DNA of 64,000 bases from Candidatus Kapaibacteriota bacterium (GCA_048594725.1 JBMDXA010000199.1:159-64158), one strand, 5' to 3'; shown: positions 5,001 through 22,109, numbered from the stretch's first letter. A program made the numbers and translations. Notes: generated by a model from the sequence alone, not told the origin.

Positions 5001-8000
5001 CCAAGGCAATGCTCGCGGCCGAGGCTCCGCAACCATTCATCATCAGCGGAGGGTTTCAGCTCGGTCTGGATCTCCCCTGGCCGTTCGGTGATATCGATGT
5101 CAACGTAAACCTGAGCTGGCGTTTCCATGAACTGCCGGACAGGCGGCCGATCGGCAGCATCGACGCCGGAAAATATCCTTCGCTCGAAGCCTACAGGAGC
5201 GCGGCCACGTTCCCGGTGAAGGGGGTGAATATGATGTCGCAGGAGCCCTTCCTGCTGAATTATGTGAATCGCGATCATCCGGTTGATATCAGGACCGAGG
5301 ATTCATCGCTTCCGGCTCCCGGGCAGACCGGTGCCGATAGCTGGATCGGTGATTTCGGCGATTTCATCGTCCCGCTCGACACGTATATCGATGTGGAGTT
5401 CGCAAAGGGAGTGCTTCCGGTGGCCGGGAGCGAGTCGATGCGGAAATTCGTTCCTCCGATGTCCGGGGGAGTTTGCAGCGAACTGGTTCCGCCGCAACGA
5501 GGGCGTTCCAACCAGATCGAGCATACCTACAAGGTGCGCAACGTTTCGCTGTTCTACTGGACCGGCAGTGCCTGGGAGCCGTACCGGATGGAGCAGTTGA
5601 ATACGCCGCTTCTCCGGATACTGGAGGATGCGCAGGACCCGTCGCCGGAGGCCACGCTCGCCACCGTGCTTCGTTATGGCGCCTGGCAGGCCACTCTGGG
5701 GGGGAAGCACACCACGCTCCGCATTCTGGGCCGTACGCCGTTCGACCGGAACGCAACGCTCTCTCCCACGGAATCCGATTTTCCGCCCGCCTACCTTATC
5801 TGCCCGGAGGAGCCTCGTCCCATGAGCTGTCTGGACTGGAGCGAGGTTCCCCTTGCTACGCTGTACCCGGCGAACGAGGAAATCTTCGATCGTAAACTGG
5901 CTCTGACGGTCACCTCCGGGAATGCCGAAGTAGTGGCACTGCCGAATATATTCGGTCTGCCGCGCTCGCTGATGCTGAAGCGGAATGATCGCATCGAACT
6001 CCGTTTTCCGCAGCCTGTCAACAGCGTTGCGCTCAGGCTTTCCACACTGGCGGAGAATGTCACGATCTCCTATTACCGTGGATATGCCTACGTGCCGGGA
6101 AATGATGAGCAACAGGGAGGCACTTCTTCCGGCGACGGTGCCGATAGCTGGGAAATAGTGACGGCGGAGGAATCATCGGATGAAATCCTCTCCAGGCTCC
6201 GCGCCATGCCGGGATTTATCCGTGCGCTCTGCGAAGGCCCGCAACTTCCCGCCGAAACGGCCGGGCCGGTGGTTGCCATCGCGGAATTGATGGATGGAGT
6301 CTATGGAACCGTGCACACCTATCTGCGCCAGGTCATGGGGCTGGAGGTGCCTCCGGAAGAGGAGCCGGCGACGTTCTGCGACAGGCTTCGGGAGATGCTG
6401 CGAGTCATCATCGTCGGCTATACCGGCGGTATCCCTATTCCGGCGGTGTTCCGCTCGTCGGTGGAGCGATTCTATCGGGATGTGCAGACCTCCGTGGAGG
6501 CATTTCTCAGGCTGCCGGAGGGAGCAGGGCAGCCGCCCGACGGGGGGGCGGATCTGTTCTACGAGCAGTGGGGTGATCTCATCGCCTGTCTCGGGACGCT
6601 CTGCGATGCGCGGGGAAACCTGCCGGGATATATCGATGAGAGCATTGCCGTTATGATCGATCCGGCCATCGGCCAGTTGTACAACCGGCTGGCCGGGGAG
6701 CACTGGTATGGAAGCGGACTCTCGGCGCGCACCGATCTCCGCGACACCTGCGATCAGCTTCGTGCGGTTGCCGGCTTCATCGCGCTGGTTTCTCTCGATT
6801 ATCAGGAGCTCTCCGGCGGCATTATTCCGGGCATTCTCTCCCCGTACTACCAGACGCTGGAAGAGGGGGCCATTGCCGTGCGCGCGCTGATGAACCAGGC
6901 GTGGGCCGGGAACTGCATCCTCCCGTCATGCACCGGCGCTGCCGGTCTGGCGGAGATCGCACGGCTGTTCTGTACGGGCACCTTGCATACCGGCGCTGCA
7001 GCCGTCACCGGAATTGAAACGCTTCTTGATGAGTTCGAACCGGCGCGCGATGCCCTGCTGGAATCATTCGGATGGGATATGCCGGCCGGGAACTCCGGCG
7101 ATTTTTGTGCGAACCTTCGTGCCGCGCTGGAACCGCTGGTGGTGGCTCTCTCGGTTCTCGATGAGCTGCCGTTTTCGCTGCGTCGCTCCGTCGTGGAATT
7201 TCATGAGAAGCTTGGAGCGCTGGTTACGCAGTACAGGAGGGAGACCCTGGAGCTTCCTGCACCGGCGCCGGATCAGGAGGCCGATGCGTTCGCGGAAAAA
7301 TGGAACGCCATCTTCGCCTGCCTCTGCGCCATCTGCTCGCGCTCGCCGGAAGCCCTGGAACCGGTGGCCGGGAACCTTGATGAGGAACTCGGGACGTTAT
7401 TCGGGAATATCACCGCGCTGCTCCATACCGGGGCCGTAACCGGCGGACGCAGAATGCTTCTGTATGGCTCGCGGATGCCGGAGAGGCTGGAGGATCGTGT
7501 TGCCGGGCTCACCAACTTCTTTACCTCCTTTCTAACCGGGTGCTCCATAACGATGCCGGCGGGCGTTAAAGCGCGGCTGGATACCGCTTTCACAGCGTTC
7601 GATCAGCTCTACACCCAGGTGGAGCAGGCGCTCTCCGGCTATACTCTCTGCCAGGGGCCGCTGGGCGGGTACTGCGGGGAGTGGGGCGGACTGTTCGAAT
7701 GTCTGCGCGGCCTTCGCCTGCGCCAGAGCGAATATCCCGCCGGGATTCGCAATCAGATCGGTGGGGAGGAACTGGGCGATATCGTCGATTCGATCTACCG
7801 TATCGCGCTGGGCTTTACTCCCACCGAGCCTGTTCTCGTTCCGGCGGGAAGCGATCTGCTCCTTCTGGAAATCGAAGGGGTGCTGAAATTCTTCTATGAA
7901 TATTGCCTGCAAGGGGATGATATCCCTACGAACAAGGAACAGGCGCTTGCTCCCTATCTGGAACAATTACGTCTGCTTTTTTCGAGAATAATCGCGCTGC

Positions 8001-10633
8001 CGGACTACGAAGGGGTGAACGTCTGTCACATCAACGGGATGAGAAGCCCGCACCGGCGCGAGCAGCTGGTGGAATTCCATCGCCTGCTCTGCATGGTGCC
8101 TCCCATCGGGATTCCCTGGCCCCCGCCGGAAATTCTCGCGCTGGTGGCCGATGCCGGCGAGATGCTGGCGGATATTACATCGGTTCTGAATATCGACCCT
8201 GTGCCGGTGCAGGGAGCGGCATACGATTTCTGCGGAGTGTTCGGCAACGTGGTTCGCACGCTGGTTATCGCGTACGGGGCGGAGGGCGCGCTGCCGCTTC
8301 GTGTTCTTGCGGAGATGCGGCGGTTCTGCGATGCGATGCAGGAGGCGATCGATGATGCCATTACTTCGGCCCCGGCCATTCCCTCCGGAAGCTGTGCGGA
8401 AACCGCATCCCGCTGGCTGGCGGATCTCTCCTGTCTCGAAAAGATCTGCTCCTATCGCTGGTATCTTCCCGGCCAGATCTATACGGCGGTGGAAACCTAT
8501 CTCGGCGGGGCGATCGAGGAACTCTATCGCGAAGCGCTCCTCCTTGCCGATATGCTCGGGCTGCCGATGGAGCGCAATCGCAGCACGAGCGATCGTTGCC
8601 GCCGAGCGGCCCTTATCAGGAACTTCATCGCCATTCAAAGTCTTGATTATGCGGGCCTGGAGTCTCCCGGTACGCTTCCATGGTTCACCAACCAGGATGA
8701 ACTGGAATCGGTCTATCTCGATCCCGCTCTGGACGGCGCGCGCTACACTGCCTGCGCCACCGATAAGCCGTATGATCCGCTGATGAAGCGGGAAACGGTC
8801 GCCCGCCTGGATCTGCTCGACGAGGTGATCTATGATAATGCCGATGTCGCCATCGACCGGATCATCATCGAGCCGGAATACGGCTGCGATTCCGGTGATC
8901 TTCTCGAATGGGGACCGGTGCTGGCGGAACTGGACGTGCGCCTGCAATCTCTTTCCGACACGAAGGAAACGCTGGAGGATGTGCTCGCGGTTTCCGCCGT
9001 GGATGGCCCGGAATATCGCCGCACCGCGCGCGAGCTGGCCGGGATCAATGCTGCTATTGGTCTGCTGGATAATTATAAATCCGAAATTCCTCTCACCGGA
9101 ATTGAGCCGTGCGGTACCTATCTGCATGCGGTCTGCTGGCACGAACCGGAGGATTATCAGTACAACGTGAATCTCCCCGATCCGGAAGTTATCGCCGAGG
9201 AGGCGCGCACCATGGCGATATCGCTCAATACCCTCACGCAGCCGGTCTGGCGTCCCGATACCACCTATGCGGTTCAGATAGAGACCGTGGAGTGGGTTCG
9301 GGATGTTCTTTCGGATGGCCGCAGGAGCGGGGAGGAGGTCTATACCCGCTTCCATACGTTCGGATTCCGGACTGCCGGAGGGGTGGGGCATTTCCATCAG
9401 ACCGGAAACGGGAGCGATGACGCAAGCTACCGGAAGGAGTATCTCGATCTGCTCAGGGCCGACAGGGAAGCGGAGTATAAATACGCCGATTTAAAACACT
9501 ACATCAATTATGCTAATTCCTATCCGAATGCCGATGGGGCATTATCGGGGGCCAAGCCGCTGTATTATCACGACGTGCAGCTCCTTCTGTTCTACGTGCA
9601 TGATTATGTGAATTCGATGTTCAGCGGATGGAGCCCGCACCCGCAGACCGGGCTGGCGGCCGTCAGGTCGGGAATGCGAATCACCATCAAGGACCCCGCT
9701 TCCGATGGAAGCAATGGGGATATCGTGATCGAGGCGCCGGAATGGGACCGCGATCCGAGGCCGGTCATCGGCAGGCATATCAGGAAATTCAAGAATATCG
9801 TCGCCAATGGCATGGCCGATGGAGCCGGTTGCATCACCATCACCCCGGTGGAGGAGAGCGGGCCGCCGGCACGGATGACGGCGGTGAATATCGTGTCGCT
9901 GCAACCACGAAAACTCTATACCGCGATATTCGAGGCGATGTTCGGTGCCGGGGGCGCTCCTGATGTGGGGCGTGAGGTCCATAACTATGTCTTCCAGACC
10001 TCGCGCTACCGGAGTTTCCGGGAACATATCGAGACCTGGATGCTGGACGGCGTTTCCGGATCGGAGCGTGCTCTCTATGATATTCCGGTCTATCTCCCGG
10101 CCACGGGTGCGGCGGTTCTGGGCCATCTCCTGAACGACTCGGAGCCTTCCGATCCGGTGGTGCTGGAGTCGGTGCTCCGGCTCCGCCGCGAGTACGCATC
10201 CGGGTTCGATCGCATCGCCGATGGCCTTCTGCGGCTGCGCGATATCCCCGCCCCGGCAACCACCGAGGTAAATGTGCTGAGAAGCGGGGATGATGTGATC
10301 GGCCTGCTGGTACGGAGCCCCGAACCTCTGAACGACCCGAAGGTGCCGCGAACGGTTCCGGAGGGGATTGCACCGGAGGATTTCGGCAAGGTACTGGGCG
10401 ATTCTCTTTCGGTCTCCGGAATTGCCAGCCCGGTTGTGCTCTTCTCAACCGACTGTACGAGCGTCCTCCTCCTTGGAGAGCCCGCCGGCAGCGGGCCCTG
10501 GGATCTGGAATTGAAGTTCCGCTATCTCCGGTTCGATGGTATAGGATACCGGTTCGCTACCGAAACCGTGGAGACGGGGGGCGTGCAGGAGGAGATAACG
10601 CTGGAAATCCCGATCGCCATCACAATCGAATAA
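2066..10633 (+). CDS. giant hypothetical protein A (2855 aa), family not recognised
   Basis: An 8.6-kb ORF with ordinary protein-like composition, unlike the Arg/Gly/Pro/His-rich antisense ORFs. It has three parts: a beta-rich N region (aa 1-~1370), a Cys-bearing helical repeat array (~aa 1370-2210) and a beta-rich C region. I saw no signal peptide, T9SS CTD, Walker A or HExxH. Confidence 0.85.
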   Translation: MTANTFYPSIKTLIDPEDIPEALSFVREGVDALLDGIFIKDLQIMSSGADAKAYNVVLHLLGKYRFDILGSGLSLVANPTFDENAVGGGTDIEMTVSYSLPILRYLSAGSLERFSLQGGPIFDLALNILGLGEEQLLDDVILLFEADSIPRYVDKINSHYSLSGGNAVQNPSGSTHAEKIANLAAALKSNPYLTAEGISPVQAVFEVSVQDANGDQTLANVNRLFERRLGSSPVDRIKDLFIPTVFASAYLSAGVEVSPNILKPISAATGEVISDGSVKTTFVFDAGEVQFSTTGGFGFGDSLTVTFPEEYPTAQIGNTGLTIGFTDAKLDLSRNSNLPEIDRDGRTRDFVGVFVEEASIGLPSSLWNVLGSEGARARLVGRNLIIGTGGLSGTIGLEGVTSGGTTYDVLEARFGGDDGFIVRLTRFDISFQQGAVVGSKIEGTLVIPGWENEAGGAVEVPVSVTLTDGGFEFSASASGLHEELAIPEILAYTIERLRLGKRESRYFVETSGTLDIIAEIPGIGTRFITQPIEINRLVIWSDGTIELDGGNVILPAAVALNMGPVAMSVTSLHLGAYQQQWDGVGRRYMYFGFDGGIKTGLGGIDARGRGVKFYFTVDGGELHTFLRVEAIHIDLTIPGDASEQTASLLLHGFVSVKNPEHPGDPEAPSSPENLAASPAYTEYAGGIDFMLPKIDMGGGASMRIVPATGAFLVDTHMNLSTPVAIGSTGLGIYGFQGTFGNRYVLSKSAAGVSDEATWWEFYKKDPRGIGITKFREEEGISVGAGASIATLGDQGQAFSSKLYFMLSIPEAYLLEGQAAIMSRRLGLDQDADPPFYAIITLAPGDSISANFGANVNIPDPGGEILALQASLEMAYFFGKSSAWYIYIGRDEPQSARIEATLLKLFNAHAYFMLAASGIKAGAGVDWEYKQDCGIAVVGLGASLEVGGRVSFKPVQLGGWVRLMGYAELKVFGIGFRLLAKAMLAAEAPQPFIISGGFQLGLDLPWPFGDIDVNVNLSWRFHELPDRRPIGSIDAGKYPSLEAYRSAATFPVKGVNMMSQEPFLLNYVNRDHPVDIRTEDSSLPAPGQTGADSWIGDFGDFIVPLDTYIDVEFAKGVLPVAGSESMRKFVPPMSGGVCSELVPPQRGRSNQIEHTYKVRNVSLFYWTGSAWEPYRMEQLNTPLLRILEDAQDPSPEATLATVLRYGAWQATLGGKHTTLRILGRTPFDRNATLSPTESDFPPAYLICPEEPRPMSCLDWSEVPLATLYPANEEIFDRKLALTVTSGNAEVVALPNIFGLPRSLMLKRNDRIELRFPQPVNSVALRLSTLAENVTISYYRGYAYVPGNDEQQGGTSSGDGADSWEIVTAEESSDEILSRLRAMPGFIRALCEGPQLPAETAGPVVAIAELMDGVYGTVHTYLRQVMGLEVPPEEEPATFCDRLREMLRVIIVGYTGGIPIPAVFRSSVERFYRDVQTSVEAFLRLPEGAGQPPDGGADLFYEQWGDLIACLGTLCDARGNLPGYIDESIAVMIDPAIGQLYNRLAGEHWYGSGLSARTDLRDTCDQLRAVAGFIALVSLDYQELSGGIIPGILSPYYQTLEEGAIAVRALMNQAWAGNCILPSCTGAAGLAEIARLFCTGTLHTGAAAVTGIETLLDEFEPARDALLESFGWDMPAGNSGDFCANLRAALEPLVVALSVLDELPFSLRRSVVEFHEKLGALVTQYRRETLELPAPAPDQEADAFAEKWNAIFACLCAICSRSPEALEPVAGNLDEELGTLFGNITALLHTGAVTGGRRMLLYGSRMPERLEDRVAGLTNFFTSFLTGCSITMPAGVKARLDTAFTAFDQLYTQVEQALSGYTLCQGPLGGYCGEWGGLFECLRGLRLRQSEYPAGIRNQIGGEELGDIVDSIYRIALGFTPTEPVLVPAGSDLLLLEIEGVLKFFYEYCLQGDDIPTNKEQALAPYLEQLRLLFSRIIALPDYEGVNVCHINGMRSPHRREQLVEFHRLLCMVPPIGIPWPPPEILALVADAGEMLADITSVLNIDPVPVQGAAYDFCGVFGNVVRTLVIAYGAEGALPLRVLAEMRRFCDAMQEAIDDAITSAPAIPSGSCAETASRWLADLSCLEKICSYRWYLPGQIYTAVETYLGGAIEELYREALLLADMLGLPMERNRSTSDRCRRAALIRNFIAIQSLDYAGLESPGTLPWFTNQDELESVYLDPALDGARYTACATDKPYDPLMKRETVARLDLLDEVIYDNADVAIDRIIIEPEYGCDSGDLLEWGPVLAELDVRLQSLSDTKETLEDVLAVSAVDGPEYRRTARELAGINAAIGLLDNYKSEIPLTGIEPCGTYLHAVCWHEPEDYQYNVNLPDPEVIAEEARTMAISLNTLTQPVWRPDTTYAVQIETVEWVRDVLSDGRRSGEEVYTRFHTFGFRTAGGVGHFHQTGNGSDDASYRKEYLDLLRADREAEYKYADLKHYINYANSYPNADGALSGAKPLYYHDVQLLLFYVHDYVNSMFSGWSPHPQTGLAAVRSGMRITIKDPASDGSNGDIVIEAPEWDRDPRPVIGRHIRKFKNIVANGMADGAGCITITPVEESGPPARMTAVNIVSLQPRKLYTAIFEAMFGAGGAPDVGREVHNYVFQTSRYRSFREHIETWMLDGVSGSERALYDIPVYLPATGAAVLGHLLNDSEPSDPVVLESVLRLRREYASGFDRIADGLLRLRDIPAPATTEVNVLRSGDDVIGLLVRSPEPLNDPKVPRTVPEGIAPEDFGKVLGDSLSVSGIASPVVLFSTDCTSVLLLGEPAGSGPWDLELKFRYLRFDGIGYRFATETVETGGVQEEITLEIPIAITIE
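6170..8700 (+). repeat. protein-level array of Cys-bearing helix-loop-helix repeats inside giant A
   Basis: Core motifs occur at 6563..6628 (EQWGDLIACLGTLCDARGNLPG), 7295..7363 (EKWNAIFACLCAICSRSPEALEP), 7673..7744 (CGEWGGLFECLRGLRLRQSEYPAG) and 8408..8473 (SRWLADLSCLEKICSYRWYLPG). Degenerate copies lie near 6950 and 8060, giving a spacing of about 366-380 nt. They interleave with FC..LR..L and C..LR..A.FIA..SLDY helices. Boundaries are approximate. Confidence 0.7.
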
Positions 10634-10806: not shown

Positions 10807-13800
10807 ATGAATCAGCAGATCGCCTTGTTATCGCTAACCCGGGTTGCCCACTTCGGGAGTTTTATCGGAGGAAATTTTACTATTACGATCCAGGCCGCCG
10901 GAGATACCACCGTCCTGCAGGTTCAGATCCCTTATGGAGGAGGGACCGACCGGGATGAGCTGCTGGCCGGCAAGGAGATTCCGAATGGAACCTGGACGAT
11001 GATGCCTGTAAACGTTTCCGTTCAGGCCATGAGCCCCCAGTTCGGCGGAACCGGTTCCGGCTCGACCGCGTTCCAGGTAAGCACCACCAACCAGGGCCCC
11101 TATTATCTGGATGTTCCGGTTGGTGCCATGACCGGGCCATCCGCCACCATACGCCTGACGTTCGAGGCCACCGTCTGGGAGTGCGAGGCTCCGTGTGATG
11201 AGGCCGGCTGGTATTGCGGCGGATATCACGAGCGATCGGTCTATTATAAATGGCTCTGTGCGGGGAAGGATCACACCTCGTTTAATCAGCTCGCTTCCGT
11301 TCAATCGCTCGATACGCTGCTGGTGGCTTCGCTTCCGGTCTTCAATGCGGTGCAGAGCAGCCTTGTGCTGAATTACCAGCCTTCGGTCTCCACACTGTTC
11401 CAGCGGCTGGATTATGCCCTGGATGTCACCACGGCCGCGGTCGATCGCTGGAGCCAGCTGACATGGCGCCGCAGGTACCAGATAAATCAATTCTCGGCGA
11501 ATTTCGTCGAGAGGGGCATCGCATATCTCGGGGAGGCCGTGAAGAAGCCCGAAATAGAGCCCCCTGCCACGCCGGTCTGCATCAAATGGCACGATCTTCT
11601 GCGATGCCTCTGCGCGTTCAATGCACGGCGTTCCACACTGCCGGGCGCTGCGGTGAATCAATACGATGTCGATCTCCTGCCCCATATCAATGCTCTCTTC
11701 TGGGAGGTCATCGCGATTGCGCAGAACGAGGGGATAGGGACGTTGCTGGATCAGAACCGCACCGATCATTACGAGAAGGTCCGTTATATCGCGGCGTTTT
11801 TCGAGTACTGGTGCCGCCGTTGCGGATACGGCGGATCGGGATCACTCGGGAATATCGAATATTATTATCCCCTGCTCCAGCAGAGATATGAATCGCTGAT
11901 CTCCAGCGAGTCCATGGAGGGAATTACCCTTTGCGAGCCCACGCTGGAGGAATTGTGCGATCGCTGGCTCGAAATTCTCTCCTGCATCCGCAAGCTCTGC
12001 GATCTGCGCGCACAGCTGCCGCAGGGGGTAGTCGATGATATCGTAACCACGTTCGAGGATCTGGTGGCATCGTTGCAGCAAAGCCTGATGTTTCTTGGAG
12101 GAACCTTCCTTCCGGGAATCGAATCCCTTTGCGTACGGGCGGGGCTGGCTGCATCGGGCATCGAAAAATATATCTGCCCGGATAACCTGCTCCCTGGAGG
12201 TGCGGACAGGCGCGATGCGCTCGAAGCGCTGCTGCTCCAGTTCGAAAGTGCCATGGATGGCTTCATCGCACGCAACGGAGATCTCTGCAAGGATGAGATC
12301 CCGGTCGGTCCGGAATTCTGCGATGACTGGCTCGATCTGCTCGGCTGCCTGAAGCGGATCTGCGACGGCAGGCGTGAAATGCTTCCCGATCTGCGCTCGG
12401 CATTCTTCGGCCTCCTCTTTATTCCGGTCAGGCATCTCTATCATATCGTCAGCGATACTCCCTTGTCGGATGCACCGGCCGGTATCGGCGAGCTTTGCTA
12501 TCGCATCGGCTATCTCCATACGGCGTTTTCCGCGATCTGCTCCGAGGGAGTTATCGACCCGATACTCAAGCTCCATATCGATGGCTATCTGGCCGGGCTT
12601 CAGGATGCGCTCGATGAACTGAAGGATGAATATCCCGATATCTGTGCGGAAACTCTCCTGCTCGATCCCGATTTCTGTCCCGATATGAAGGAGATCCTCG
12701 CCTGTCTGCGCCGCGTGTGCGATCAGGCCGATATCCTGCATCCATCGGTGCTGGAATATTTTCTGGATGAATATTATAATCACATCGATTATCTCTACTG
12801 GCTGGTGCTCGATATTCCGTCGGAATATGAACTTCCCGCGGTACGGCTGGGCGTCGGCGCGATGTGCAGCCGGCTGGAGGCGATCCAGGAGTATATAGAT
12901 GCGATCTGCGAGTTGGAGGAGGCCGATCCTATCCGCAAGATGAGGCTGGAGTACCAGCTCGGTGGGCTCCGAAGCGCGCACACCGCTTTTCTCCTCCGCT
13001 ATCCTGCTCTCTGTACCCCGCAGCCCGGTTATAACTGCATCGACTGGCTTGCGATGCTCGATTGCCTGGCCCGCCTGTGCGACAAAAGAGTATGGCTGGA
13101 GAGATATCATCCTGAGGTGATAACCAGAATCATCGAATTATTCGGCGGGGAGGAGCCACAGGAGGATTCCCCTCTGGATGAGGTGTTCGATCCGCTGTTC
13201 CCCACGCTGCCGGCGCCTGTTCCCGGCGGGAGCATCGACCGCATCTGCTACAAGGTCCGGAGCGTCCTGGACCGCCTTGCCGGGCATTGCGTCTGCGGCA
13301 TATCGCTGGACCCCGCGCAGCTGGGCGCGCTGGAAGCATGGCTGATTCCGTTCCGGGAGGCCTATCAGGAATTGATGACCGATATGACCATCCTTGAAAC
13401 CGTGCACTGCGATGATGCAGATATGCAGTGCGACCGGTTTGCCAGGATCGTGGCATTTCACCGTCTGCTCTGCCGGGAGGAGTATGATGCCTCATCTCCC
13501 GCTATCACCGCCATCGCCGGCCTGTTGCAGGAGTTTTCCGATGAGCTTCCGGCGATCATCCTCCAGCTTGGGTTCAATCCGTTGTCGGTAACGATTCCCG
13601 ATGGGAGCGATCTCTGCGAGTTGCTCGATTTTACGCTGCTGGTGCTGGCGCCGGCTTCCGCCGATACCGGGAAACTCCCGGTGGAGACCCGCTACCGGAT
13701 CGATTGCTTCTTCGAGGCATTGCGCGCCCAGGTGGAGCTGTATGCTCCTGTTGCGGAGAACCGCCCCATCCTCTGCCCGGCAGGGGAGTGCGATGATCTG

Positions 13801-16800
13801 GTGGATCGCTGGCTGGAAATCTTTATCTGTCTCTGCCGGATCTGCAACGAGCAGGCCAACCCGGTCTGGTATGATACCCCGGAGGCAGGGAGCATCCGCA
13901 CATTTATCGAAAATGAAGTATGCCCGCAATTGCTCGCACTGCACCCCACTCTGCGGGATATTTCCGAATCGCTCCAGTTGCCGGTCGATCTCGGTTTCGC
14001 CGCAACGGAATCGTGCTGCCTTGTGGTACATGATGCTCTGGTTCTGCTGGCGGCCATCGGCCTTCGGTGCGATACGCTGAATTATCAGGGGATATCGCCG
14101 TACGAACTGGATCTCTTTTATGAGTCGATGCAGCAGAAGATGGCGCAGTTGAACGGCCTGCTTGCGGTGGCGGGGCTGTTCAGCTGCCGTACCGAGTGCG
14201 ACGAGTGGAAGGGAATGCTGGAATGTCTTGCCGATATCCTTCTTCGGGGAGACCGGGTTTCACCGGCTCTTGCCGCGACGGCCGATTCTCTGTTCGGTGA
14301 CTCGATCACCGGGCTGTATGATGCGCTCTATACCGATGGCCCGCTCGATCCTCCCGCTTCCAGCCCGGTACCTCCGGCGGCGTTCGGTGAGAGTTCGTGG
14401 AAACTTCTAGTGGCGCTCAAGGGGATGTATCGTCTCTGTGCGCCCTGGTCGGCGCGCTGGAGCCGGGAGCTGGAGGAGCCGCTGGCCGCGCTGCTGCTGG
14501 AGTTCAGGGGAGCGTACGCCACGTTCCTGATGGCGCTCGACGCCGAAGGCATAACCGGTTGCGGGCGGATGGAGCCGGAGTGCGACATGCTGGGGGAGAT
14601 AGCGGAGATCAGCGCCCGGTTCTGCAATGGGGATGCCGATCCGCTGGATGCTCCCGTGGCGGTTGCCGCCGGGCTGCTCGCCAATCTCTCGGACGAACTC
14701 CAGGATATCGCCTCGCAACTCCGGCTGGCATGGACTCTCCCTTCGGGAAATAATTTCTGCGTGCGGCTCGGCTCCGTGCTGGGCCTGCTCGGGGTTGACC
14801 TTTCCCGTCCCGGCGAGCTTACGGCATCGCACCGCCTGCTGGCCCGGTTCATCTTCGCCATTCTCCGGGAACAGGCGGCGGAATATGGAAGAGTATTTCC
14901 AGAGCGAGCCGGGGAACCGCCCGCGCCGATGCGGGCCTTCCGCGGGAGCTGGATGGAGATGCTCGATTGCATCTGCCGGACCTGCGAGCAGTTGCGGAGC
15001 ATGCCGAAGAGCGTTCTCGACGGATTGACAGCGGTGAAGGGGCGTTTCTCCCAGATGGAGATCCGGATCGATGTGCTCTATCCGGTTATCACCACACAGG
15101 CGGCGGCGCTCGGCGTGGGGCTGGGCGATCTCGATTGTGTGAATTCCTCCTGCGGCAAGCTGGCTGTTATCAGGCTCTTCTTCGCATTGTACGGGATAAG
15201 CGCACCGGAGCCCTCGCCGGGGCTTGTGACGCTGCTGGCCGGATACCAGCAGAGCCTTCGCGCTGCTCTGGCCCTGCTGCGGGGAGCATTGCAGGACGCC
15301 GGGCTCGATCCATGCGGCGGGCAGGGGGATGCGGCGAGCACGATGGTGCAGTCGCCGCACCTGTATATCCAGGCTGCGGGATCTACCGGTGCCGATGGGT
15401 CGGTGCCGGGCATCCATCTTCGCTGGGCGCTGCTGGAGGGGCTGGCGGGGCATCTGCCGAAAGGGGATCTGGCCGCTCCCTACGGACCCTATCCCGCCGA
15501 TTATGGATATAATCGTCCGGATGATGTGGTGCGCCTTTATCGAACGCCATACGATGAATTGGTTGCGGCATTTCCGGTACTGCTGGACCTGACCGCCATG
15601 CGCCCGGTACGGGTCTACAAGGCCGCCGGTGCACCGGTCTTGTGGGAGTTCGCTCCAATCCCGTCCGATCCGACGTTCCCGGATGTATCGGCCACGGCCA
15701 TCATGCTCCGCTTCGCCGATCCCGATCTGTACGACGATACCGATCATGACGATCCGCAGAATATCCAGGGCGATGTCCAGTATATTCTCAGCCATTATAC
15801 CGGTGTGCTCGATGTGCAGCCGATCGATAAAACGCTGTTCGTTCTGGATGTCACGGTGGCCGCTGCCGGGGCCGATCCGCTGCTGGAGGTGGAGACCGTT
15901 TCCGGTGGAATGGCTGCCGGGGATGACCGCGGTATCATTTCGGGGAGAAGGGCCTTTCATGGCAATGCATCGCCTCATCGTGTCATCAACGAGGGAGTAC
16001 AGTATGCGCGGCTGCGCTGGACCGACTGCTCTCCGGCCACCATCTCAATACAGACCTACAGCGATTATTACTGGGGAATCAGTAGAAGATATGGCTGGGA
16101 GGAGGTAGGGGAATTTTCTCTTTCGCTCGATCGTGACGAGGTCTACAAGCGCCTGGAGGATCGAGAGCATTTCACGGTGCATAAATCCTGGCCGAAATAT
16201 CAGAACGATCCGGCCGACGCAAGCGGGCGGGGACGGGTGAACGTCTGCAATTACCGGGATCGCTGGGATCGAAATCCCGCGCCTCATTCCAATCCCGAAT
16301 ATGCCTGCCAGGATTACGAGCGCGATCCCGAGGATTCGCTGGCCTTCGCCGTTCAGGAATATCTCGAAAAGAGCAGCATCCCCGGCAATGCCGATCCCTA
16401 CGTGCAGCGGCGTTCGAAGCTGCAATCATTCACCGGCGATCAGGCGGAGATCCGTCTGAGCCTGCTTCAGATCCTGAATCTCGCCGCGCAGGATTATCAT
16501 GTGGCCCGGATGCTCGGCCTCGGGTATATCGATTGGAGCATTCCATCCCTTCCCGGAGGATCGGGGCAGCGGTATATCTATGCGGCGGAATATATCGTGG
16601 CACCACGACGTGGACGGGTGCAGGCGCCGTCGGGAAAGCATCTGTATCTCACCCTTCCCACGGCCCAGACCGATCATCGTCTGCCGGTGGGGCCAAGCCT
16701 TGCAACCGGCACAGATCCGGCCGCCATCGAGTTCGGTCTTCCCGCGTTCGATGCCGATTCGGCTCCGATGACCGACCAGGAGGGATATACCCCCTATGGC

Positions 16801-19800
16801 GGCGCCCGTTTCATCCGGCTGCACAAGGATGCCCTGGTATTCGATCTTCCGGCTTCGACGCCGTTTTTCGAAGGGGATGAAGAGTTCAGCCGCATGGAGC
16901 ATACCCGGCCATTGTTCTACGGGGTGACCCTGCATCGCCTGAACGGCAGCGAATACGAACGGGTCTGGCCGGAGATAAGCAATGATGCCGGGGGGTACGA
17001 GCGGGATGATTATAATCCCTATGCCGATGCCTCGCCGGAGCATTATCCCGAGACCATCGGGATTCCGGAAACCACCAGTGACGATGGGCCGTTTTTCATC
17101 CACCATCTGGTCAAACCTCAGGAGGACCCCGATCCGCTGGTCTATCAGGCAAAGCTTGCGAGGGTGGAGGGAACCTTCAACTATGGCCTGTATGGCATCA
17201 ACTGGTTTTCGCGCGCCTCGGAGGTGAATATTCATCCGGAGCCGGTGACCACCCAGTTCCCGAAACGGAATACCATCAAGCCCCCGCTGAATCTGACAGC
17301 GCATCATATTCAGGAGGAATATCCGCGCATATTTATTTCCGCCTACGAGGCCGCGCATCTGGATGATCTCGGCGGCACAACGCGTGTGACGTTCGATTGG
17401 AATCATATTCAGAACGCCGCCTACAGGCGAGCCGATCTCGTCGAATTCTTTTTCCGCAGCTCTCCTCCGGCCCGGGTGATGGGGGAGATAGCCCGTGTGC
17501 GCGAACTTCACGGCACCCGCCGTGTGCAGGTGCAGACACGGAGTTATACCGATTATTCCGTGGAGACCGATCCGCCGGGCGGGCTCGTGATAGAGCCTGC
17601 GATCTCCTCCGATGACGTGTCCGGAAATCTTTTCACCGGAAGCCTGCTCGCTACCGGAGCGGGGAAGTTCGTGATAGCCGATGTGGCGCGTGATGGCGAC
17701 GGGTATGCCGTGTTTACGCTGGAGATGACCGCCGAGGATATCGGGGAGCGCAGGACGTACGTTGCGCCGAAGGAGGGGGAACGGTTTCTGGTAGTGGAGA
17801 ATCTCGCCGATACCGGCAGGTGGAAGCCGCTTCCCGGTTGCAGCATCCCTCTGGTTTCCTTCTCCGACCATGTGGAGCGCCATGTGCCCGCCGCTACAGG
17901 GCGTGAGGTGATCGATCATGTGGGAGGGATCTACGAGCCAGCGGCCATCGTTGCGGCTGCCGTGGATGGGGCCTATACCATCACGTTCCAGAATCCATCC
18001 GGCGTGCTGCTGCCGTATCATGAGTATCCCGAGGGGGCCGGTTCAGCAGTATCGGAGCATCTGGAGCGGGTCGAGTGGTATGGGGGAAGCGTGCGGATAG
18101 AGGATACCTCCGGCGCCATCCGCACGCTGAACGTTGTGCGGATCGAGACAGTGCCGGGCGATCCCTCCGTCCCCGCCGTTCCCACGGTGCTGCATGTGGC
18201 CGAGCAGTCCGGTGGCGGCGTCTCTCTTGCGGGAACCGGCACGCTGGTGGAATTCCATCCATCGTATCGAGCCTATCTGCGCCTTGGCGATGCCGGTATC
18301 GATCTGGCGGCGGAGGTGCTTCCGGCCGGGCGCGAGCAATCGCGCACCACATTTATCGCCGCGCGTGCGGTGGATACCACGGAGTGCCATACGGCCGGCG
18401 GCATTACGTTCTGCCATAGCTCCATGCTTACGCTGCCGGTCCCGCATCTGGCGCGCAGGATCATCGTGCCGCAGGTGCCGGCTCTCCCCGATAATCCGCT
18501 GGTTGCAACGCGGCCGGATTATTATGGAAAATCGACCTATTCCTTCGATGTGTATTTCGCCGCGCGCGACCTTTCCGGCGGGCTGCGCGATCCCTATGCG
18601 ATGGTCTTCTACCGCAGCAGCGAGCTTGATCTGCTTCAGGCGCTCTATAGCGATACGACCGTTGCATCGATCCTGGGCCAGTTGCCGGCGGCGGGGGACG
18701 ACTCGTCTCTGGCCGCGCGGTGGCGGTCATTATTCGGCGTGGAGACCGAGACCGAAGAGACCACCGCAGAGCCGGAGGATATCGGGACATTCCGGCGCTA
18801 TGGCGGGTTCGGATTTCCGAATCCGGACCGGAGCGATTTCTTCACGGAGGATCTCGATAATCCGGGTACCACCATTGCTCCGTTCGCCGTTCCTCCGGGG
18901 GAGACCGGGCACCGGAAGCCGGCCGATGTGGAGCGATATATCCGTATCGCCATCGAAGGGGCATTCCTGCCGCTGACGGAGCGTCCTGTGTTCTTCGATC
19001 TTGTGGCCGAGGACCCGCTCCTGCGGACGTCGCAGAACGCCCCGGTGATCCGGAACCGGAACGGTGATCTCCTGAAACCCGCGCTCAGGGCCGCCGATGG
19101 CTCCATCCTGCGGGATGCGGACCCCGGGTTCGATCCCTATCCGATGGTGCGCCGCCAGGAGGGGGAAGTGGAGCTTTCCGGCGACGCGGAGCATCGGAAG
19201 TGGCGGCAGGTGCGTTTCGCCGATTATTCCCTGGATGGCGCCTCGCGGAATATCTATTTCTATTGCGCGCGCGAACTCTCCAATACCATGGTCTCCGGCC
19301 AGCGGAGCGGCATGATAGGGCCGGTGCGCCTTATCAATACCTATCCCTCGGTGGCGCCCGGCATACGGGCGGTTCATGCCCGGCCCCGATCGTATTTCGG
19401 CCAGACCAGAGATGCGATCGCCTTCGAGATCGCAGCCTATCCGGCGAGCGAACATGTGGAACGGATTCGTATCTACCGCGCCTACGCCGCTGAACAGGCC
19501 GTCACTATCCGGACAATGACGATGGCCGGGGAAGTTCCTCTTCCCGCCGACGGAATAGTCCACGACTGGTTTGCCGGCGCTCTTCCGCATTATGGCGAGC
19601 CGATCTATTATCGCCTGACGGCGTTGCGGCGGATCATCAACGAGGGGGGGATGGAGGAGTATATCGAATCGCTTCCGTCGGAAACGATCGTTACCAATAT
19701 CGTGGATGGAATTGCTCCGGCTGCGCCTGCGATTTCCGCAGCATACGATGGTGCATATCCCGGTGTGCTGAGCGATGTGGTGCTCACCTGGAATCCGACC

Positions 19801-20028
19801 ACCTATAATGCGGCGTATCATCTTTTCAAGATGAACGAGCGGGGCAACTGGGAGAGCATACACCAGGTGCAGTCGGATACGAATACGGAGATGTCATACG
19901 CCTATCCCGACGATCTGCCCACGGCCTCCGGAGGCAAGAGGCTGTATCACCATTTCAAGGTGGCTGCGGTGAATTCCTCGGGATTGCCCAGCAGGGAGGA
20001 GCGGATCGTGACGTTGCCGGGAGAATAA
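10807..20028 (+). CDS. giant hypothetical protein B (3073 aa), family not recognised; FN3-like C-terminal domain
   Basis: A 9.2-kb ORF with protein-like composition. It has a short beta-rich N region (aa 1-256), a Cys/Trp helical repeat array (aa ~257-1504) and a long beta-rich C region. It ends in an FN3-like domain (PAAPAISAAYDG...VVLTWNPTTYNAAYHLFKMNERGNWESI...YHHFKVAAVNSSGLPS). There is no signal peptide or T9SS CTD. Confidence 0.85.
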   Translation: MNQQIALLSLTRVAHFGSFIGGNFTITIQAAGDTTVLQVQIPYGGGTDRDELLAGKEIPNGTWTMMPVNVSVQAMSPQFGGTGSGSTAFQVSTTNQGPYYLDVPVGAMTGPSATIRLTFEATVWECEAPCDEAGWYCGGYHERSVYYKWLCAGKDHTSFNQLASVQSLDTLLVASLPVFNAVQSSLVLNYQPSVSTLFQRLDYALDVTTAAVDRWSQLTWRRRYQINQFSANFVERGIAYLGEAVKKPEIEPPATPVCIKWHDLLRCLCAFNARRSTLPGAAVNQYDVDLLPHINALFWEVIAIAQNEGIGTLLDQNRTDHYEKVRYIAAFFEYWCRRCGYGGSGSLGNIEYYYPLLQQRYESLISSESMEGITLCEPTLEELCDRWLEILSCIRKLCDLRAQLPQGVVDDIVTTFEDLVASLQQSLMFLGGTFLPGIESLCVRAGLAASGIEKYICPDNLLPGGADRRDALEALLLQFESAMDGFIARNGDLCKDEIPVGPEFCDDWLDLLGCLKRICDGRREMLPDLRSAFFGLLFIPVRHLYHIVSDTPLSDAPAGIGELCYRIGYLHTAFSAICSEGVIDPILKLHIDGYLAGLQDALDELKDEYPDICAETLLLDPDFCPDMKEILACLRRVCDQADILHPSVLEYFLDEYYNHIDYLYWLVLDIPSEYELPAVRLGVGAMCSRLEAIQEYIDAICELEEADPIRKMRLEYQLGGLRSAHTAFLLRYPALCTPQPGYNCIDWLAMLDCLARLCDKRVWLERYHPEVITRIIELFGGEEPQEDSPLDEVFDPLFPTLPAPVPGGSIDRICYKVRSVLDRLAGHCVCGISLDPAQLGALEAWLIPFREAYQELMTDMTILETVHCDDADMQCDRFARIVAFHRLLCREEYDASSPAITAIAGLLQEFSDELPAIILQLGFNPLSVTIPDGSDLCELLDFTLLVLAPASADTGKLPVETRYRIDCFFEALRAQVELYAPVAENRPILCPAGECDDLVDRWLEIFICLCRICNEQANPVWYDTPEAGSIRTFIENEVCPQLLALHPTLRDISESLQLPVDLGFAATESCCLVVHDALVLLAAIGLRCDTLNYQGISPYELDLFYESMQQKMAQLNGLLAVAGLFSCRTECDEWKGMLECLADILLRGDRVSPALAATADSLFGDSITGLYDALYTDGPLDPPASSPVPPAAFGESSWKLLVALKGMYRLCAPWSARWSRELEEPLAALLLEFRGAYATFLMALDAEGITGCGRMEPECDMLGEIAEISARFCNGDADPLDAPVAVAAGLLANLSDELQDIASQLRLAWTLPSGNNFCVRLGSVLGLLGVDLSRPGELTASHRLLARFIFAILREQAAEYGRVFPERAGEPPAPMRAFRGSWMEMLDCICRTCEQLRSMPKSVLDGLTAVKGRFSQMEIRIDVLYPVITTQAAALGVGLGDLDCVNSSCGKLAVIRLFFALYGISAPEPSPGLVTLLAGYQQSLRAALALLRGALQDAGLDPCGGQGDAASTMVQSPHLYIQAAGSTGADGSVPGIHLRWALLEGLAGHLPKGDLAAPYGPYPADYGYNRPDDVVRLYRTPYDELVAAFPVLLDLTAMRPVRVYKAAGAPVLWEFAPIPSDPTFPDVSATAIMLRFADPDLYDDTDHDDPQNIQGDVQYILSHYTGVLDVQPIDKTLFVLDVTVAAAGADPLLEVETVSGGMAAGDDRGIISGRRAFHGNASPHRVINEGVQYARLRWTDCSPATISIQTYSDYYWGISRRYGWEEVGEFSLSLDRDEVYKRLEDREHFTVHKSWPKYQNDPADASGRGRVNVCNYRDRWDRNPAPHSNPEYACQDYERDPEDSLAFAVQEYLEKSSIPGNADPYVQRRSKLQSFTGDQAEIRLSLLQILNLAAQDYHVARMLGLGYIDWSIPSLPGGSGQRYIYAAEYIVAPRRGRVQAPSGKHLYLTLPTAQTDHRLPVGPSLATGTDPAAIEFGLPAFDADSAPMTDQEGYTPYGGARFIRLHKDALVFDLPASTPFFEGDEEFSRMEHTRPLFYGVTLHRLNGSEYERVWPEISNDAGGYERDDYNPYADASPEHYPETIGIPETTSDDGPFFIHHLVKPQEDPDPLVYQAKLARVEGTFNYGLYGINWFSRASEVNIHPEPVTTQFPKRNTIKPPLNLTAHHIQEEYPRIFISAYEAAHLDDLGGTTRVTFDWNHIQNAAYRRADLVEFFFRSSPPARVMGEIARVRELHGTRRVQVQTRSYTDYSVETDPPGGLVIEPAISSDDVSGNLFTGSLLATGAGKFVIADVARDGDGYAVFTLEMTAEDIGERRTYVAPKEGERFLVVENLADTGRWKPLPGCSIPLVSFSDHVERHVPAATGREVIDHVGGIYEPAAIVAAAVDGAYTITFQNPSGVLLPYHEYPEGAGSAVSEHLERVEWYGGSVRIEDTSGAIRTLNVVRIETVPGDPSVPAVPTVLHVAEQSGGGVSLAGTGTLVEFHPSYRAYLRLGDAGIDLAAEVLPAGREQSRTTFIAARAVDTTECHTAGGITFCHSSMLTLPVPHLARRIIVPQVPALPDNPLVATRPDYYGKSTYSFDVYFAARDLSGGLRDPYAMVFYRSSELDLLQALYSDTTVASILGQLPAAGDDSSLAARWRSLFGVETETEETTAEPEDIGTFRRYGGFGFPNPDRSDFFTEDLDNPGTTIAPFAVPPGETGHRKPADVERYIRIAIEGAFLPLTERPVFFDLVAEDPLLRTSQNAPVIRNRNGDLLKPALRAADGSILRDADPGFDPYPMVRRQEGEVELSGDAEHRKWRQVRFADYSLDGASRNIYFYCARELSNTMVSGQRSGMIGPVRLINTYPSVAPGIRAVHARPRSYFGQTRDAIAFEIAAYPASEHVERIRIYRAYAAEQAVTIRTMTMAGEVPLPADGIVHDWFAGALPHYGEPIYYRLTALRRIINEGGMEEYIESLPSETIVTNIVDGIAPAAPAISAAYDGAYPGVLSDVVLTWNPTTYNAAYHLFKMNERGNWESIHQVQSDTNTEMSYAYPDDLPTASGGKRLYHHFKVAAVNSSGLPSREERIVTLPGE
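11578..15320 (+). repeat. protein-level array of 10 super-repeats (~120-130 aa each) with conserved Cys/Trp motif inside giant B
   Basis: Type-I cores start at 11578, 11955, 12316, 12672, 13033, 13426, 13801, 14194, 14578 and 14938 (spacing 356-393 nt). The consensus is C-x(3-10)-C-D-x-W-[LM]-E-[IM]-L-x-C-[IL]-x-R-[ILV]-C-[DN]-x(4-7)-[LM]-P, for example LCDRWLEILSCIRKLCDLRAQLP, FCDDWLDLLGCLKRICDGRREMLP and NCIDWLAMLDCLARLCDKR. They alternate with type-II helices of the form C-x(14-16)-C (LCYRIGYLHTAFSAIC, MCSRLEAIQEYIDAIC). Confidence 0.8.
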
Positions 20029-20564: not shown

Positions 20565-20630
20565 ATTCGATTTCGAACTTCGGATTTTCGATTGGGAGAG
20601 GAGATTTTACGATTTCAGATTTTCGATTAT
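20565..20630 (+). repeat. GATTTTC-heptamer intergenic element (copy E1; satellite copy at 20777..20789)
   Basis: The sequence is attcgatttcgaacttcGGATTTTCGATTGGgagaggaGATTTTACGATTTCAGATTTTCGATTatat. It shares the GATTTTCGATTGG core with the copies at 30953, 40813, 42937, 44893 and 51813 (reverse strand). Confidence 0.7.
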
Positions 20631-20921
20631 ATACCTGATAGACCCAACCATGCCAGATGCATCACGCAAAGCCGCGAAGGCGCAAAGAAGAGGTCTTTCT
20701 TTTCGCCTTCGCGGCTTCCCGTGGGATTCTTCTGGAAGTGCCCACTCAGGGTCGCTGGAGTATATAGTTGCCTTCAGATTTTCGATTGGAAGCGAGGAGG
20801 GGCCGCCGACGGGAGGCCTGCTGTCAGTAAGCAGTCGCCTTCGTCCGTGGCAGCTCCAACGAGACTGCGGGAGTCTAGGGATATTCCCGGAATAATGGAA
20901 ATAAGCTCCTTGACCGGCTGG

Positions 20922-21992
20922 TTACTGCTTCAGCCGGAAGCTGAAGGTCGTGCCGGTTCCCAGTTGCGATTCAACCTGGACGGTGGAGCCATGGGCTTCG
21001 ATGATATGCTTGACGATGGCGAGCCCAAGGCCGCTTCCTCCCACCGCCCGCGAGCGGTCCTTGTTCACCCGGTAGAAGCGTTCGAAGATCCGTCCCAGAT
21101 CCTCTTTCGGGATGCCGATGCCGGTATCGCGCACACGAACGATCGCTTCGGTGGCGCCCGGCTCCAGCTCTATGCTCACCACGCCGCCGGGATGATTGTA
21201 TTTGATGGCATTCTCGATCAGGTTGACCACCGCCTGTTTCAGTCGGTCGCGGTCGCCGAGCACGGAGATATTCCCGTTCCTGGGGGAGCCGGCGATATGG
21301 AACTCCAGCTGCACATCGGCCATCTCGGCGGTGGGCTGAAGTTCGTCGATGATGGCGCGGAAATACTCCACGGCGTTGAAGTAGCGGAAGCTCATCTTCA
21401 TCTCTCCGGATTCGATGCGGGAGATCTCGATCAGATCGGTCAGCAGGGAGTGCAGGCGAAGGACGTTCTGATGGGCCTTGTGGAGAAAATCATCGCGCAC
21501 CTCCGGATCTTCCACGGCGCCATCGATCAGGGTTTCCAGGTAGCCCTGCACCGAGAAGATGGGGGTTCGAAGCTCGTGCGAGACGTTGCCGAGAAACTCG
21601 CTCCGCACCCGTTCCAGCCGTTTCATCTCGGCGATATCGTGTTTGGCGCGGGTGGACATGGCGTTGATGGCCTCGGCGAGCTCGCGCAGCTCCTCCAGCG
21701 GGATCTGCGCGGTATCGATCTTCCGTTCCAGGTCCCCCCTGGAGATCTCGCGCGATACGGCGGTCATGCGGTCCACATGATCGGCGATCTTCTCGGTGAA
21801 ACGGGTCACCCGCATAAATCCCACCACGAAGATCGTGGAGGCCACCACGATGATAAGCCAGATCTCCTGCTCGGGGGATTGGGGGATGCCGAAAATGTAG
21901 TGAAGGACCAGAAGCGTGACGATTGCGGCCACCGCGATGCCCAGCAGCCGGGTGGTTACCCAGCGGACCCGCTGACGAATTGAACCATTCAT
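20922..21992 (-). CDS. sensor histidine kinase (TM-HAMP-HisKA-HATPase, PhoR-like)
   Basis: It has the H-box FLGNVSHELRTPIF, the N-box LIENAIKYN and the G-boxes DTGIGI and GGSGLGLAIV. The start is placed at ATG 21992 (MNGSIRQRVRW + TM helix) rather than at the ORF-track start of 22172. Confidence 0.85.
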   Translation of the reverse strand: MNGSIRQRVRWVTTRLLGIAVAAIVTLLVLHYIFGIPQSPEQEIWLIIVVASTIFVVGFMRVTRFTEKIADHVDRMTAVSREISRGDLERKIDTAQIPLEELRELAEAINAMSTRAKHDIAEMKRLERVRSEFLGNVSHELRTPIFSVQGYLETLIDGAVEDPEVRDDFLHKAHQNVLRLHSLLTDLIEISRIESGEMKMSFRYFNAVEYFRAIIDELQPTAEMADVQLEFHIAGSPRNGNISVLGDRDRLKQAVVNLIENAIKYNHPGGVVSIELEPGATEAIVRVRDTGIGIPKEDLGRIFERFYRVNKDRSRAVGGSGLGLAIVKHIIEAHGSTVQVESQLGTGTTFSFRLKQ

Positions 21993-22070
21993 GCGTGGGG
22001 GATGAGTTGATGGAGGGCGCGCAGCCCTGAGCCGTTTGCGGCGCGTCGTGCCGCTTGTGCGTTCGCCGGC

Positions 22071-22109
22071 AGCAGTATGCGCGAGCAGTATGCGCGAGCA
22101 GTATGCGCG
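22071..22109. repeat. perfect 13-bp x3 tandem repeat (AGCAGTATGCGCG) between the response regulator and kinase genes
   Basis: Units at 22071-22083, 22084-22096 and 22097-22109 are identical. They lie in the 247-bp gap between the RR stop (22240) and the preferred HK start (21992). Confidence 0.9.

Follow-up and report, generated by a model that had tools for sequence, protein, structure and literature searches.

Saposins are small helical bundles of ~80 aa in which six conserved cysteines form three intradomain disulfides in a nested pattern (C1-C6, C2-C5 and C3-C4), and in prosaposin such bundles occur as tandem copies within one polypeptide. Spectrin (~106 aa per unit) and Ebh of Staphylococcus aureus (126 aa) are giant proteins of tandem three-helix bundles without conserved cysteines, and the repeats of CagY, a giant protein of the Helicobacter pylori type IV secretion system, vary by recombination at the DNA level. 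The middle repeat region of CagY is a long helical tandem array with regular conserved cysteines, which have been proposed to stabilise the secreted protein via extensive disulfide linkages (PMC2581425). In the Helicobacter cysteine-rich proteins (Hcp), as the same source describes with reference to the HcpB and HcpC structures, conserved cysteine pairs bridge the helices of tandem bacterial alpha-helical repeats by disulfides (PMC2581425). In Csp1 and Csp3 the cysteine side chains point into a four-helix bundle; Csp1 binds 13 Cu(I) and Csp3, which has no export signal, up to 20 (PMC7558416). Here we describe a further version of this cysteine-stapled helical-repeat theme: a module that forms a ten-unit array in B, a giant protein encoded in a 64,000-nucleotide stretch of DNA from Candidatus Kapaibacteriota bacterium (GCA_048594725.1 JBMDXA010000199.1:159-64158; hereafter the window), next to a second giant protein, A, in an uncharacterised giant-protein operon.

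Each of these systems resembles the module only in part. Hcp repeats share its tandem helices and conserved cysteine pairs, but they are 36-aa two-helix SEL1/TPR units with one disulfide each, whereas the module has ~125 aa, four helices and approximately three cysteine pairs; Hcp proteins are also small, whereas B has 3073 aa and no recognisable signal peptide. CagY matches B in its giant size and long helical array with regular cysteines, but its motifs of ~31-39 aa are Lys/Glu-rich, whereas the 125-aa units of B are ~20% identical to one another, show no repeat at the DNA level and have no sequence similarity to CagY. Saposins are likewise six-cysteine helical bundles in tandem, but differ in cysteine spacing and gave no SapB or Foldseek match. 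The four-helix bundle with cysteines predicted to point inward recalls Csp1 and Csp3; these, however, are homotetramers of single bundles with thiolates spread over the helices, whereas the module carries ~6 cysteines on helices 1 and 3 and a loop, and these vary in pairs. Spectrin and Ebh come close in period (~105-126 aa) and in their presumed rod or spacer role, but have three helices and gave no sequence or fold match.

The ten-unit array of protein B

An earlier note, made from the sequence of the window alone, had proposed a ten-fold Cys/Trp helical super-repeat in B. The translation bears this out, with ten motif starts in the B frame at aa 258, 383, 504, 622, 743, 874, 999, 1130, 1258 and 1378, and every peptide quoted in the note is present in B. 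Eight of its ten nucleotide starts agree with these positions, while two (11955 and 12672) lie 2 nt off a codon boundary, and the array ends at ~15300 rather than at 15320. B begins with a beta-rich domain, continues with the ten-unit Cys/Trp helical array and ends in a conserved core module of ~1560 aa. The features are as follows, with unit borders taken from the envelopes of an iterated hidden Markov model (HMM) and cysteine columns from the unit pattern table.

10807..20028, + strand: giant open reading frame (ORF) B, 3073 aa, from the ORF list and translation; aligned end to end with the homologue P0001 and two locus-encoded orthologues
10807..11541, + strand: N-terminal domain of B, aa 1-245, with invariant C130, C137 and C151 and no signal peptide
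11542..11919, + strand: unit 1, aa 246-371, with C16, C25, C27, C92 and C95
11905..12285, + strand: unit 2, aa 367-493, canonical six-cysteine type, modelled as four helices
12265..12639, + strand: unit 3, aa 487-611, canonical (C8, C16, W19, C25, C30, C78, C92), modelled
12622..13002, + strand: unit 4, aa 606-732, canonical, modelled
12991..13398, + strand: unit 5, aa 729-864, canonical
13381..13764, + strand: unit 6, aa 859-986, variant without W19, C25 and C92
13747..14172, + strand: unit 7, aa 981-1122, variant with an extra C27/C95 pair (CLCRIC)
14161..14550, + strand: unit 8, aa 1119-1248, without C30 and C78
14533..14910, + strand: unit 9, aa 1243-1368, variant without W19, C25 and C92
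14899..15300, + strand: unit 10, aa 1365-1498, without C8 and C16, with CICRTC
15334..20025, + strand: core module of B, aa ~1510-3073, Cys-poor, homologous to the array-less partners of A-like genes

An HMM built from the ten units after alignment with MAFFT recovered ten units in B at 79-127 bits each. After iteration with units from homologues it again delimited ten units, spanning aa 246-1498 at 61-98 bits each, whereas 200 composition-matched shuffles of the array region reached at most 7.9 bits; the periodicity therefore persists under formal repeat analysis. Tandem Repeats Finder, run up to a longest period of 500 nt, found no DNA-level repeat at this period, and the array must be old because its units are only ~20% identical to one another.

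The consensus unit of ~125 aa carries C8, C16-D-x-W19, L23, C25-L and C30, followed by a Pro-rich loop, G-x4-C78-x13-C92 and conserved Pro and Leu residues, giving a cysteine spacing of C-x7-C-x8-C-x4-C-x47-C-x13-C. CxC together with CxxC was found in unit types 1, 7 and 10 only, and unit 1 contains the motif W-W-C-R-R-C (11806-11823, B aa 334-339), which reads W-W-C-R-x-C in orthologues. The array holds 58 cysteines between aa 246 and 1503 (1258 aa, 4.6%), in line with the 50-60 positionally conserved cysteines counted previously; the remaining 1570 aa of B outside the array have seven (0.45%), the remainder of A is likewise Cys-poor, and the cysteine content of 15 other genes of the window is 0.8%. 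These cysteines are exceptionally well kept: of the 62 located at aa 130-1503, four orthologues of ~35% pairwise identity share 59 without change, although overall four-way identity in the same region is only ~12%. Across the arrays of 14 orthologues (~35% identity), conservation was 0.95 for Cys against a mean of 0.30 for other residues, with Trp at 0.60, Met at 0.20 and His lowest at 0.15. The cysteines are thus almost the sole conserved residues of a clean and well-delimited domain at ~35% protein identity.

No described family accounts for this module. Whole A and B had no match in Pfam, PHROG, NCBIfam or PADLOC, and B had no PDB-sequence match, profile searches of PDB sequences giving noise only. 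In a comparison of 40 single units with Pfam, no family (Sel1, TPR, HEAT, Arm, saposin or other) matched more than once or below E 0.02; Sel1/TPR gave nothing at E<=0.1 for whole B or A and nothing at E<=1 in the 40 units. Foldseek of a four-unit structural model (see below) against the PDB returned a best match of E 0.24 and template modelling (TM) score ~0.1, with no HEAT/ARM protein among the 50 matches listed, and nothing with E below 0.2 in BFVD. The view that the array is not HEAT, ARM, TPR, Sel1 or any other named repeat has therefore stood up to these searches.

The individual comparisons agree. HEAT/Armadillo solenoids are superhelices of ~40-47-aa two- or three-helix repeats, and the module resembles them neither in Pfam nor in structure; SEL1/TPR repeats are 34-36-aa helix-turn-helix units, against a period of ~125 aa and four helices. 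Saposin-like proteins (SAPLIP) are set apart by the lack of a SapB_1/SapB_2 match and by the cysteine spacing, and Csp proteins, whose single bundle has ~13-18 core cysteines, by the ~6 cysteines per unit on helices 1 and 3 only and the lack of a metal-storage Pfam match. Zinc-ribbon or zinc-finger domains, in which two CxxC (or CxC/CxxH) knuckles make up the site, do not fit, as no four-ligand set is kept, the cysteines vary as pairs and His conservation is 0.15. The W-W-C-R-R-C motif of unit 1 gave sub-threshold thioredoxin matches (PDB profile E 0.014; Pfam Thioredoxin E 0.021, one unit only), which are probably spurious because the modelled units 2-5 are all-alpha; that model does not extend to unit 1. 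By period, helix number, cysteine spacing and sequence or fold match, the module falls outside every known repeat against which it was tested. Its own definition (~125 aa, the helix 1 and helix 3 cysteine signature, tandem arrangement in A/B giants) applies to 10 units in B and 7 in A, and we regard it as a new, previously undescribed domain family.

Cysteine pairing, predicted fold and interpretation

Covariation was analysed in 228 units from 28 proteins. The phi coefficients were highest for C30-C78 (0.80), followed by C27-C95 (0.70), C8-C16 (0.63), C25-C92 (0.54) and C16-C92 (0.51). Mean-field direct coupling analysis was swamped by gap artefacts and was replaced by normalised mutual information with average product correction, which placed C30-C78 at the top of 5156 column pairs, well ahead of the rest, with C16-C92 in fourth and C25-C92 in sixth place. 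Correlations between cysteines of different units were not used, since the unit types follow one another in a fixed order, which confounds them. All six cysteines were present in 47 units, C8+C16+C30+C78 in 29 and only C30+C78 in 20, these being the commonest patterns. Losses also come in pairs: C30 and C78 have disappeared together, independently, in orthologous units 1, 5 and 8, both being absent from unit 1 of the window B and present in its orthologues, and both absent from unit 8 of B and of three orthologues and present in most others. In A-type units 3 and 6 it is C8 and C16 that were jointly gained or lost. This coming and going in pairs favours putative intradomain cross-links over four-cysteine metal sites.

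An AlphaFold2 model of units 2-5, computed with an alignment of 11 orthologues, had a mean predicted local distance difference test (pLDDT) score of 84.5 and a predicted TM score (pTM) of 0.66, with four helices per unit. These are discrete units of ~125 aa, unlike the two- to three-helix repeats of a solenoid, and lend no support to the solenoid suggested in the earlier note. DSSP assigned a beta-bridge that links the loop preceding helix 1 to the one between helices 3 and 4; the start of helix 1 would therefore adjoin the end of helix 3, with the two helices antiparallel. The predicted extents are approximately C16-C30 for helix 1 and C78-C92 for helix 3. The steps from C16 to C30 and from C78 to C92 are both i,i+14, so that each pair would occupy a single helix face and the two would match in antiparallel register, consistent with end staples C30-C78 and C16-C92. 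C16 and C30 would form a core-facing stripe with W19, L23 and L26, and C25 would sit on the opposite face, available to the loop cysteine C8. The helix patterns read previously need correcting on both counts: the cysteines of the second helix type are i,i+14 apart, not 15-17 residues, and those of the first follow i, i+9, i+14 (C16, C25, C30, with i+11 in some units) rather than the i+3/i+6 spacing that would place all on one face.

We propose that B carries ten tandem copies of an all-alpha module in which an N-terminal loop bearing C8 would precede four helices, with C16-D-x-W19-x5-C25-L-x3-C30 on helix 1 and C78-x13-C92 on helix 3, and in which the cysteines would serve as intradomain cross-links. 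Joining C30, at the end of helix 1, to C78, at the start of helix 3, is a pairing that we consider firm. A second staple would connect C92, at the other end of helix 3, to helix 1, either at C16 (by geometry) or at C25 (by co-occurrence); C8 would pair with whichever of C16 and C25 remains, and some units would hold an additional C27-C95 pair. Most likely the cross-links are disulfides, and we put the probability of such disulfide-type stapling at roughly 55%, because the cysteines are gained and lost pairwise, no His or Met is conserved, A and B are otherwise Cys-poor, the spacings are unlike standard Zn/Fe-S motifs and no metal-binding Pfam family matched. The expected outcome would be a chemically and mechanically hardened helical spacer, perhaps a rod. 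The array would then not be the working core of the protein but a lineage-specific extension N-terminal to a conserved core of ~1500 aa. On the most economical reading it would act as a rigid spacer or stalk that alters the dimensions or robustness of an A/B assembly and is not catalytic, because it is dispensable in most relatives, expanded in both partners of one clade and predicted to consist of discrete cross-linked bundles. Disulfides would call for an oxidising setting. This could be the extracellular space, reached by lysis or non-classical export, or the cytoplasm of a moderately thermophilic host. An extracellular, lysis-released product would fit the PA14-like insert seen in most orthologues and the tail-fibre-like protein and endolysin encoded next to the Dokdonia relatives (described below).

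Several observations weigh against disulfide stapling. In an N-terminal hydrophobicity scan, none of the A and B orthologues showed a signal peptide or a transmembrane segment, and thiols would stay reduced if the proteins were cytoplasmic in a diderm; the phage-like hint belongs to the locus of a distant homologue and not to the window. The cysteine total of the N-terminal half is even in 7 of 14 orthologues and odd in the other 7. Orthologous units at one position do not count as independent, so that the covariation rests on ~17 unit types and a handful of independent losses. Co-occurrence points to C8-C16 with C25-C92, whereas helix geometry points to C16-C92 with C8-C25. Linear coordination of Cu(I) or Hg(II) by two-cysteine sites would, moreover, be possible.

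The earlier note had left the choice between stacked metal sites and a disulfide ladder. Pairwise covariation supports the ladder best. Stacked Zn or Fe-S sites are disfavoured by the loss of cysteines in twos and not in fours, by the conservation of His, which is lower than that of any other residue, and by the restriction of CxxC knuckles to two or three unit types. To our knowledge, the spacings C-x7-C-x8-C-x4-C and C-x13-C are unlike those of known Zn or Fe-S motifs, which also counts against metal. A metal-binding array is possible though doubtful: each four-helix unit would hold metal on its cysteine pairs or clusters, either Cu(I) with digonal or trigonal thiolate coordination in the manner of Csp, or Zn at sites of the C25/C27/C92/C95 type, and A and B would be cytoplasmic metal stores or metal-stabilised scaffolds. 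It would agree with the lack of signal peptides, which makes the reducing cytoplasm the default location, with the odd cysteine totals in half of the orthologues, and with the CxC plus CxxC of units 1, 7 and 10. The cysteines also lie in predicted four-helix bundles, as they do in Csp1 and Csp3, whose bundle cores hold Cu(I) on thiolates (PMC7558416), and C16 and C30 would belong to the core-facing stripe. Yet ~6 cysteines per 125 aa compare poorly with the 13-20 Cu(I) bound per Csp monomer, mostly via Cys thiolates (PMC7558416). Neither the whole protein nor any of the 40 single units matched a metal-binding Pfam family, Met and His are poorly conserved, and the cysteines change as pairs rather than as three- or four-ligand sets, as in the 20 units that keep C30 and C78 only.

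A redox-active thiol array, with cysteines that are reduced or cycling (as a disulfide relay, oxidant sink or sensor) or that cross-link A to B or copies of one protein during assembly, appears improbable. The strongest covariation, C30-C78, lies within the unit and not between units, and the unit numbers are unequal (7 in A against 9-11 in B), although both proteins carry module arrays that could pair and the repeat cysteines of CagY contribute to multimerisation (PMC2581425). The odd cysteine totals would suit this explanation too, as would the W-W-C-R-R-C of unit 1, but its weak thioredoxin-like matches are not significant and the model is all-alpha, not a thioredoxin fold. There is a negligible probability that the array arose by chance or from composition, or that the ORF is non-coding sequence in GC-rich DNA, and this explanation is already refuted: the window is ~60% GC with many long spurious antisense ORFs, but the codon-position GC of A and B is typical of coding sequence (0.70 at third and 0.45 at second positions), full-length orthologues exist at ~35% identity in conserved synteny, and the shuffles stayed at or below 8 bits per unit against 61-98.

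Protein A, relatives and the operon

Two features that go beyond the earlier note are the seven copies of the module in A and the array's standing as a lineage-specific extension of a conserved core protein. The features of A are:

2066..10633, + strand: giant ORF A, 2855 aa, partner of B
6149..8680, + strand: seven more-degenerate copies of the module, A aa 1362-2205, with 25 Cys in 844 aa

The HMM of the B units finds 6-7 units in A (E 1e-32), and the exhaustive search described below marked seven stretches. A search with A yielded 51 homologues, mostly from Bacteroidota and including Flagellimonas, Dokdonia, Kordia, Chryseolinea and Chryseobacterium, which share its N-terminal ~1350 aa and C-terminal ~650 aa; the module occupies the variable middle region. 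Besides A itself, module carriers among these matches were P0003 and P0004 only, to which the A-like gene of the P0001 locus can be added. We considered one ancestral copy in all A proteins and dropped the idea, since the repeat HMM found no unit in the other 48 A-family proteins (best E 0.24). The first 1150 aa of A (2066-5515) were modelled by AlphaFold2 as a very large antiparallel beta-meander (pLDDT 73.5, pTM 0.41), whose best Foldseek matches in the PDB, the LptD barrel with its 26 strands and the beta-belt of ApoB100 (E ~4e-5, TM 0.12-0.2), amount to a resemblance of fold class only. A literature search for DUF6603 found nothing.

A word-indexed protein search with B returned a single homologue, P0001 (3220 aa, 34% identity), in which the repeat HMM finds 11 units (E 2e-102); a four-sequence profile likewise returned only P0001, and a scan of genome contigs only its locus, L001, which has the order [S8-peptidase giant][A-like 2857 aa][B-like][AAA+]. 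The NCBI label of this locus, 'uncultured Alphaproteobacteria', looks doubtful. B of the window was clustered under a 381-aa fragment, and the family came to light when 1.84 billion cluster representatives were searched exhaustively by HMMER with a profile, the 17 window units serving as query. This search gave 27 proteins, of which ~25 are true members and two are low-complexity false positives. Among the true members, ~12 are B-type proteins with 9-11 units and a length of 3043-3220 aa; the others are one B-type protein of 2186 aa with five units, ~10 A-type proteins with seven units and a few fragments. Because only A-type and B-type proteins and fragments were recovered, the module is restricted to the A/B pair and is very rare. 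A is followed by B in four other loci, and the contigs of P0003 and P0004 have a B-like giant directly downstream.

The core of B, in contrast to the array, has wider relatives. By phmmer (E ~1e-118) it matches the partners of A-like genes in Dokdonia (L006:16472-22717, 2081 aa) and Chryseolinea (L008:16185-20570), both of which lack the repeat array; the Chryseolinea protein (1461 aa) begins right at the B core. As the core is homologous to these array-less proteins, the conserved module [X][small][A][B] has acquired its arrays, in both subunits, in a lineage-specific manner. This operon, [large protein X][small protein][A][B], is uncharacterised and widespread in Bacteroidota-like bacteria, with relatives in cultured Flavobacteriia and Cytophagia (Dokdonia, Flagellimonas, Kordia, Chryseolinea).

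The third giant, X (2400-2640 aa), lies upstream of A in L001 (1-930), L004 (1671-9329) and L005 (2538-9794), and its Peptidase_S8 and Peptidase_C15-like domains are the only domain matches in the operon. Its central ~400 aa are shared by upstream genes of 733 aa in Dokdonia and 1237 aa in Chryseolinea; in the window, gene X would fall past the contig end.

The B orthologues P0001 and those of L003 and L005 have a beta-rich insert of ~170 aa between units 5 and 6, with a weak PA14 match in P0001 (E 0.0025, below the Pfam cut-off). Their lengths suggest the same insert in most other B orthologues and its absence from P0055, P0056 and P0059; B of the window lacks it (at ~13398). Downstream of the A-like/B-like pair of Dokdonia pacifica (L006 22741-24469) we found a tail-fibre-like protein (phrog_23676, E 1e-17; phrog_25032, E 8e-35) followed by an Amidase_3 endolysin (phrog_435, E 4.5e-26), which hints that the wider A/B module may be phage-derived or lysis-released.

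Taken jointly, these findings would allow a bolder interpretation, which we consider unlikely. The module may be the hallmark of a giant nanostructure of the FCB group (Fibrobacteres, Chlorobi and Bacteroidetes), released by lysis or a non-classical route and composed of X, A and B (~2400-3200 aa, without signal peptides), in which the disulfide-laddered arrays of A (7 units) and B (9-11 units) would act as a cross-linked stalk or ruler setting its dimensions; or it may be the first multi-domain thiolate metal store, with ~30 cysteine pairs per protein. If true, either version would be a structural principle not described for bacterial proteins. The module sits in two adjacent giants of an operon with almost no annotated function, and deciding between disulfide and metal would reveal where these signal-less giants work, giving a handle (antibodies, a tagged rod of defined length) on widespread bacterial dark matter. 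A naturally cross-linked modular helical rod could also serve protein engineering.

Host and genomic setting

A and B lie in tandem at the left end of the window, which encodes ATP synthase subunits, MutS2, ribosomal protein S1, BamA, Skp and LpxD and is chromosomal DNA. Other features of the window are:

20922-22172, - strand: HisKA/HATPase_c histidine kinase
22240-23049, - strand: OmpR-type response regulator
49602-51647: multicopper oxidase with a C-terminal sorting domain of the type IX secretion system
56477-58870: BamA
61864-63267: LpxC-FabZ fusion

The LpxC-FabZ fusion and the type IX secretion domain suggest a diderm host of FCB/Bacteroidota type. The fraction of the residues I, V, Y, W, R, E and L was 0.411 over 16 housekeeping ORFs of the window, which, by the temperature formula of Zeldovich et al. 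2007, corresponds to a crude growth optimum near 50 °C. This estimate is weak evidence for cytoplasmic disulfides, which are documented for some thermophiles (PMC1188242).

Directly upstream of A are two paralogous ORFs of ~210-236 aa (20-730 and 1058-1684) that are 44% identical. They had no Pfam or PHROG match and are unrelated to the 196-aa gene with a signal peptide found at the same position in L003 and L004. The N-terminal domain of B gave only sub-threshold noise in Pfam. Downstream of B, an ORF at 20592-21983 (+ strand, 463 aa) was rejected as a counterpart of the AAA+ neighbour in L001, being antisense noise over the histidine kinase. An IS481-type transposase with rve and helix-turn-helix domains (32280-33434) lies amid housekeeping genes, and a tRNA-Leu(TAA) at 48984-49069 was the sole Rfam or ARAGORN match in the window.

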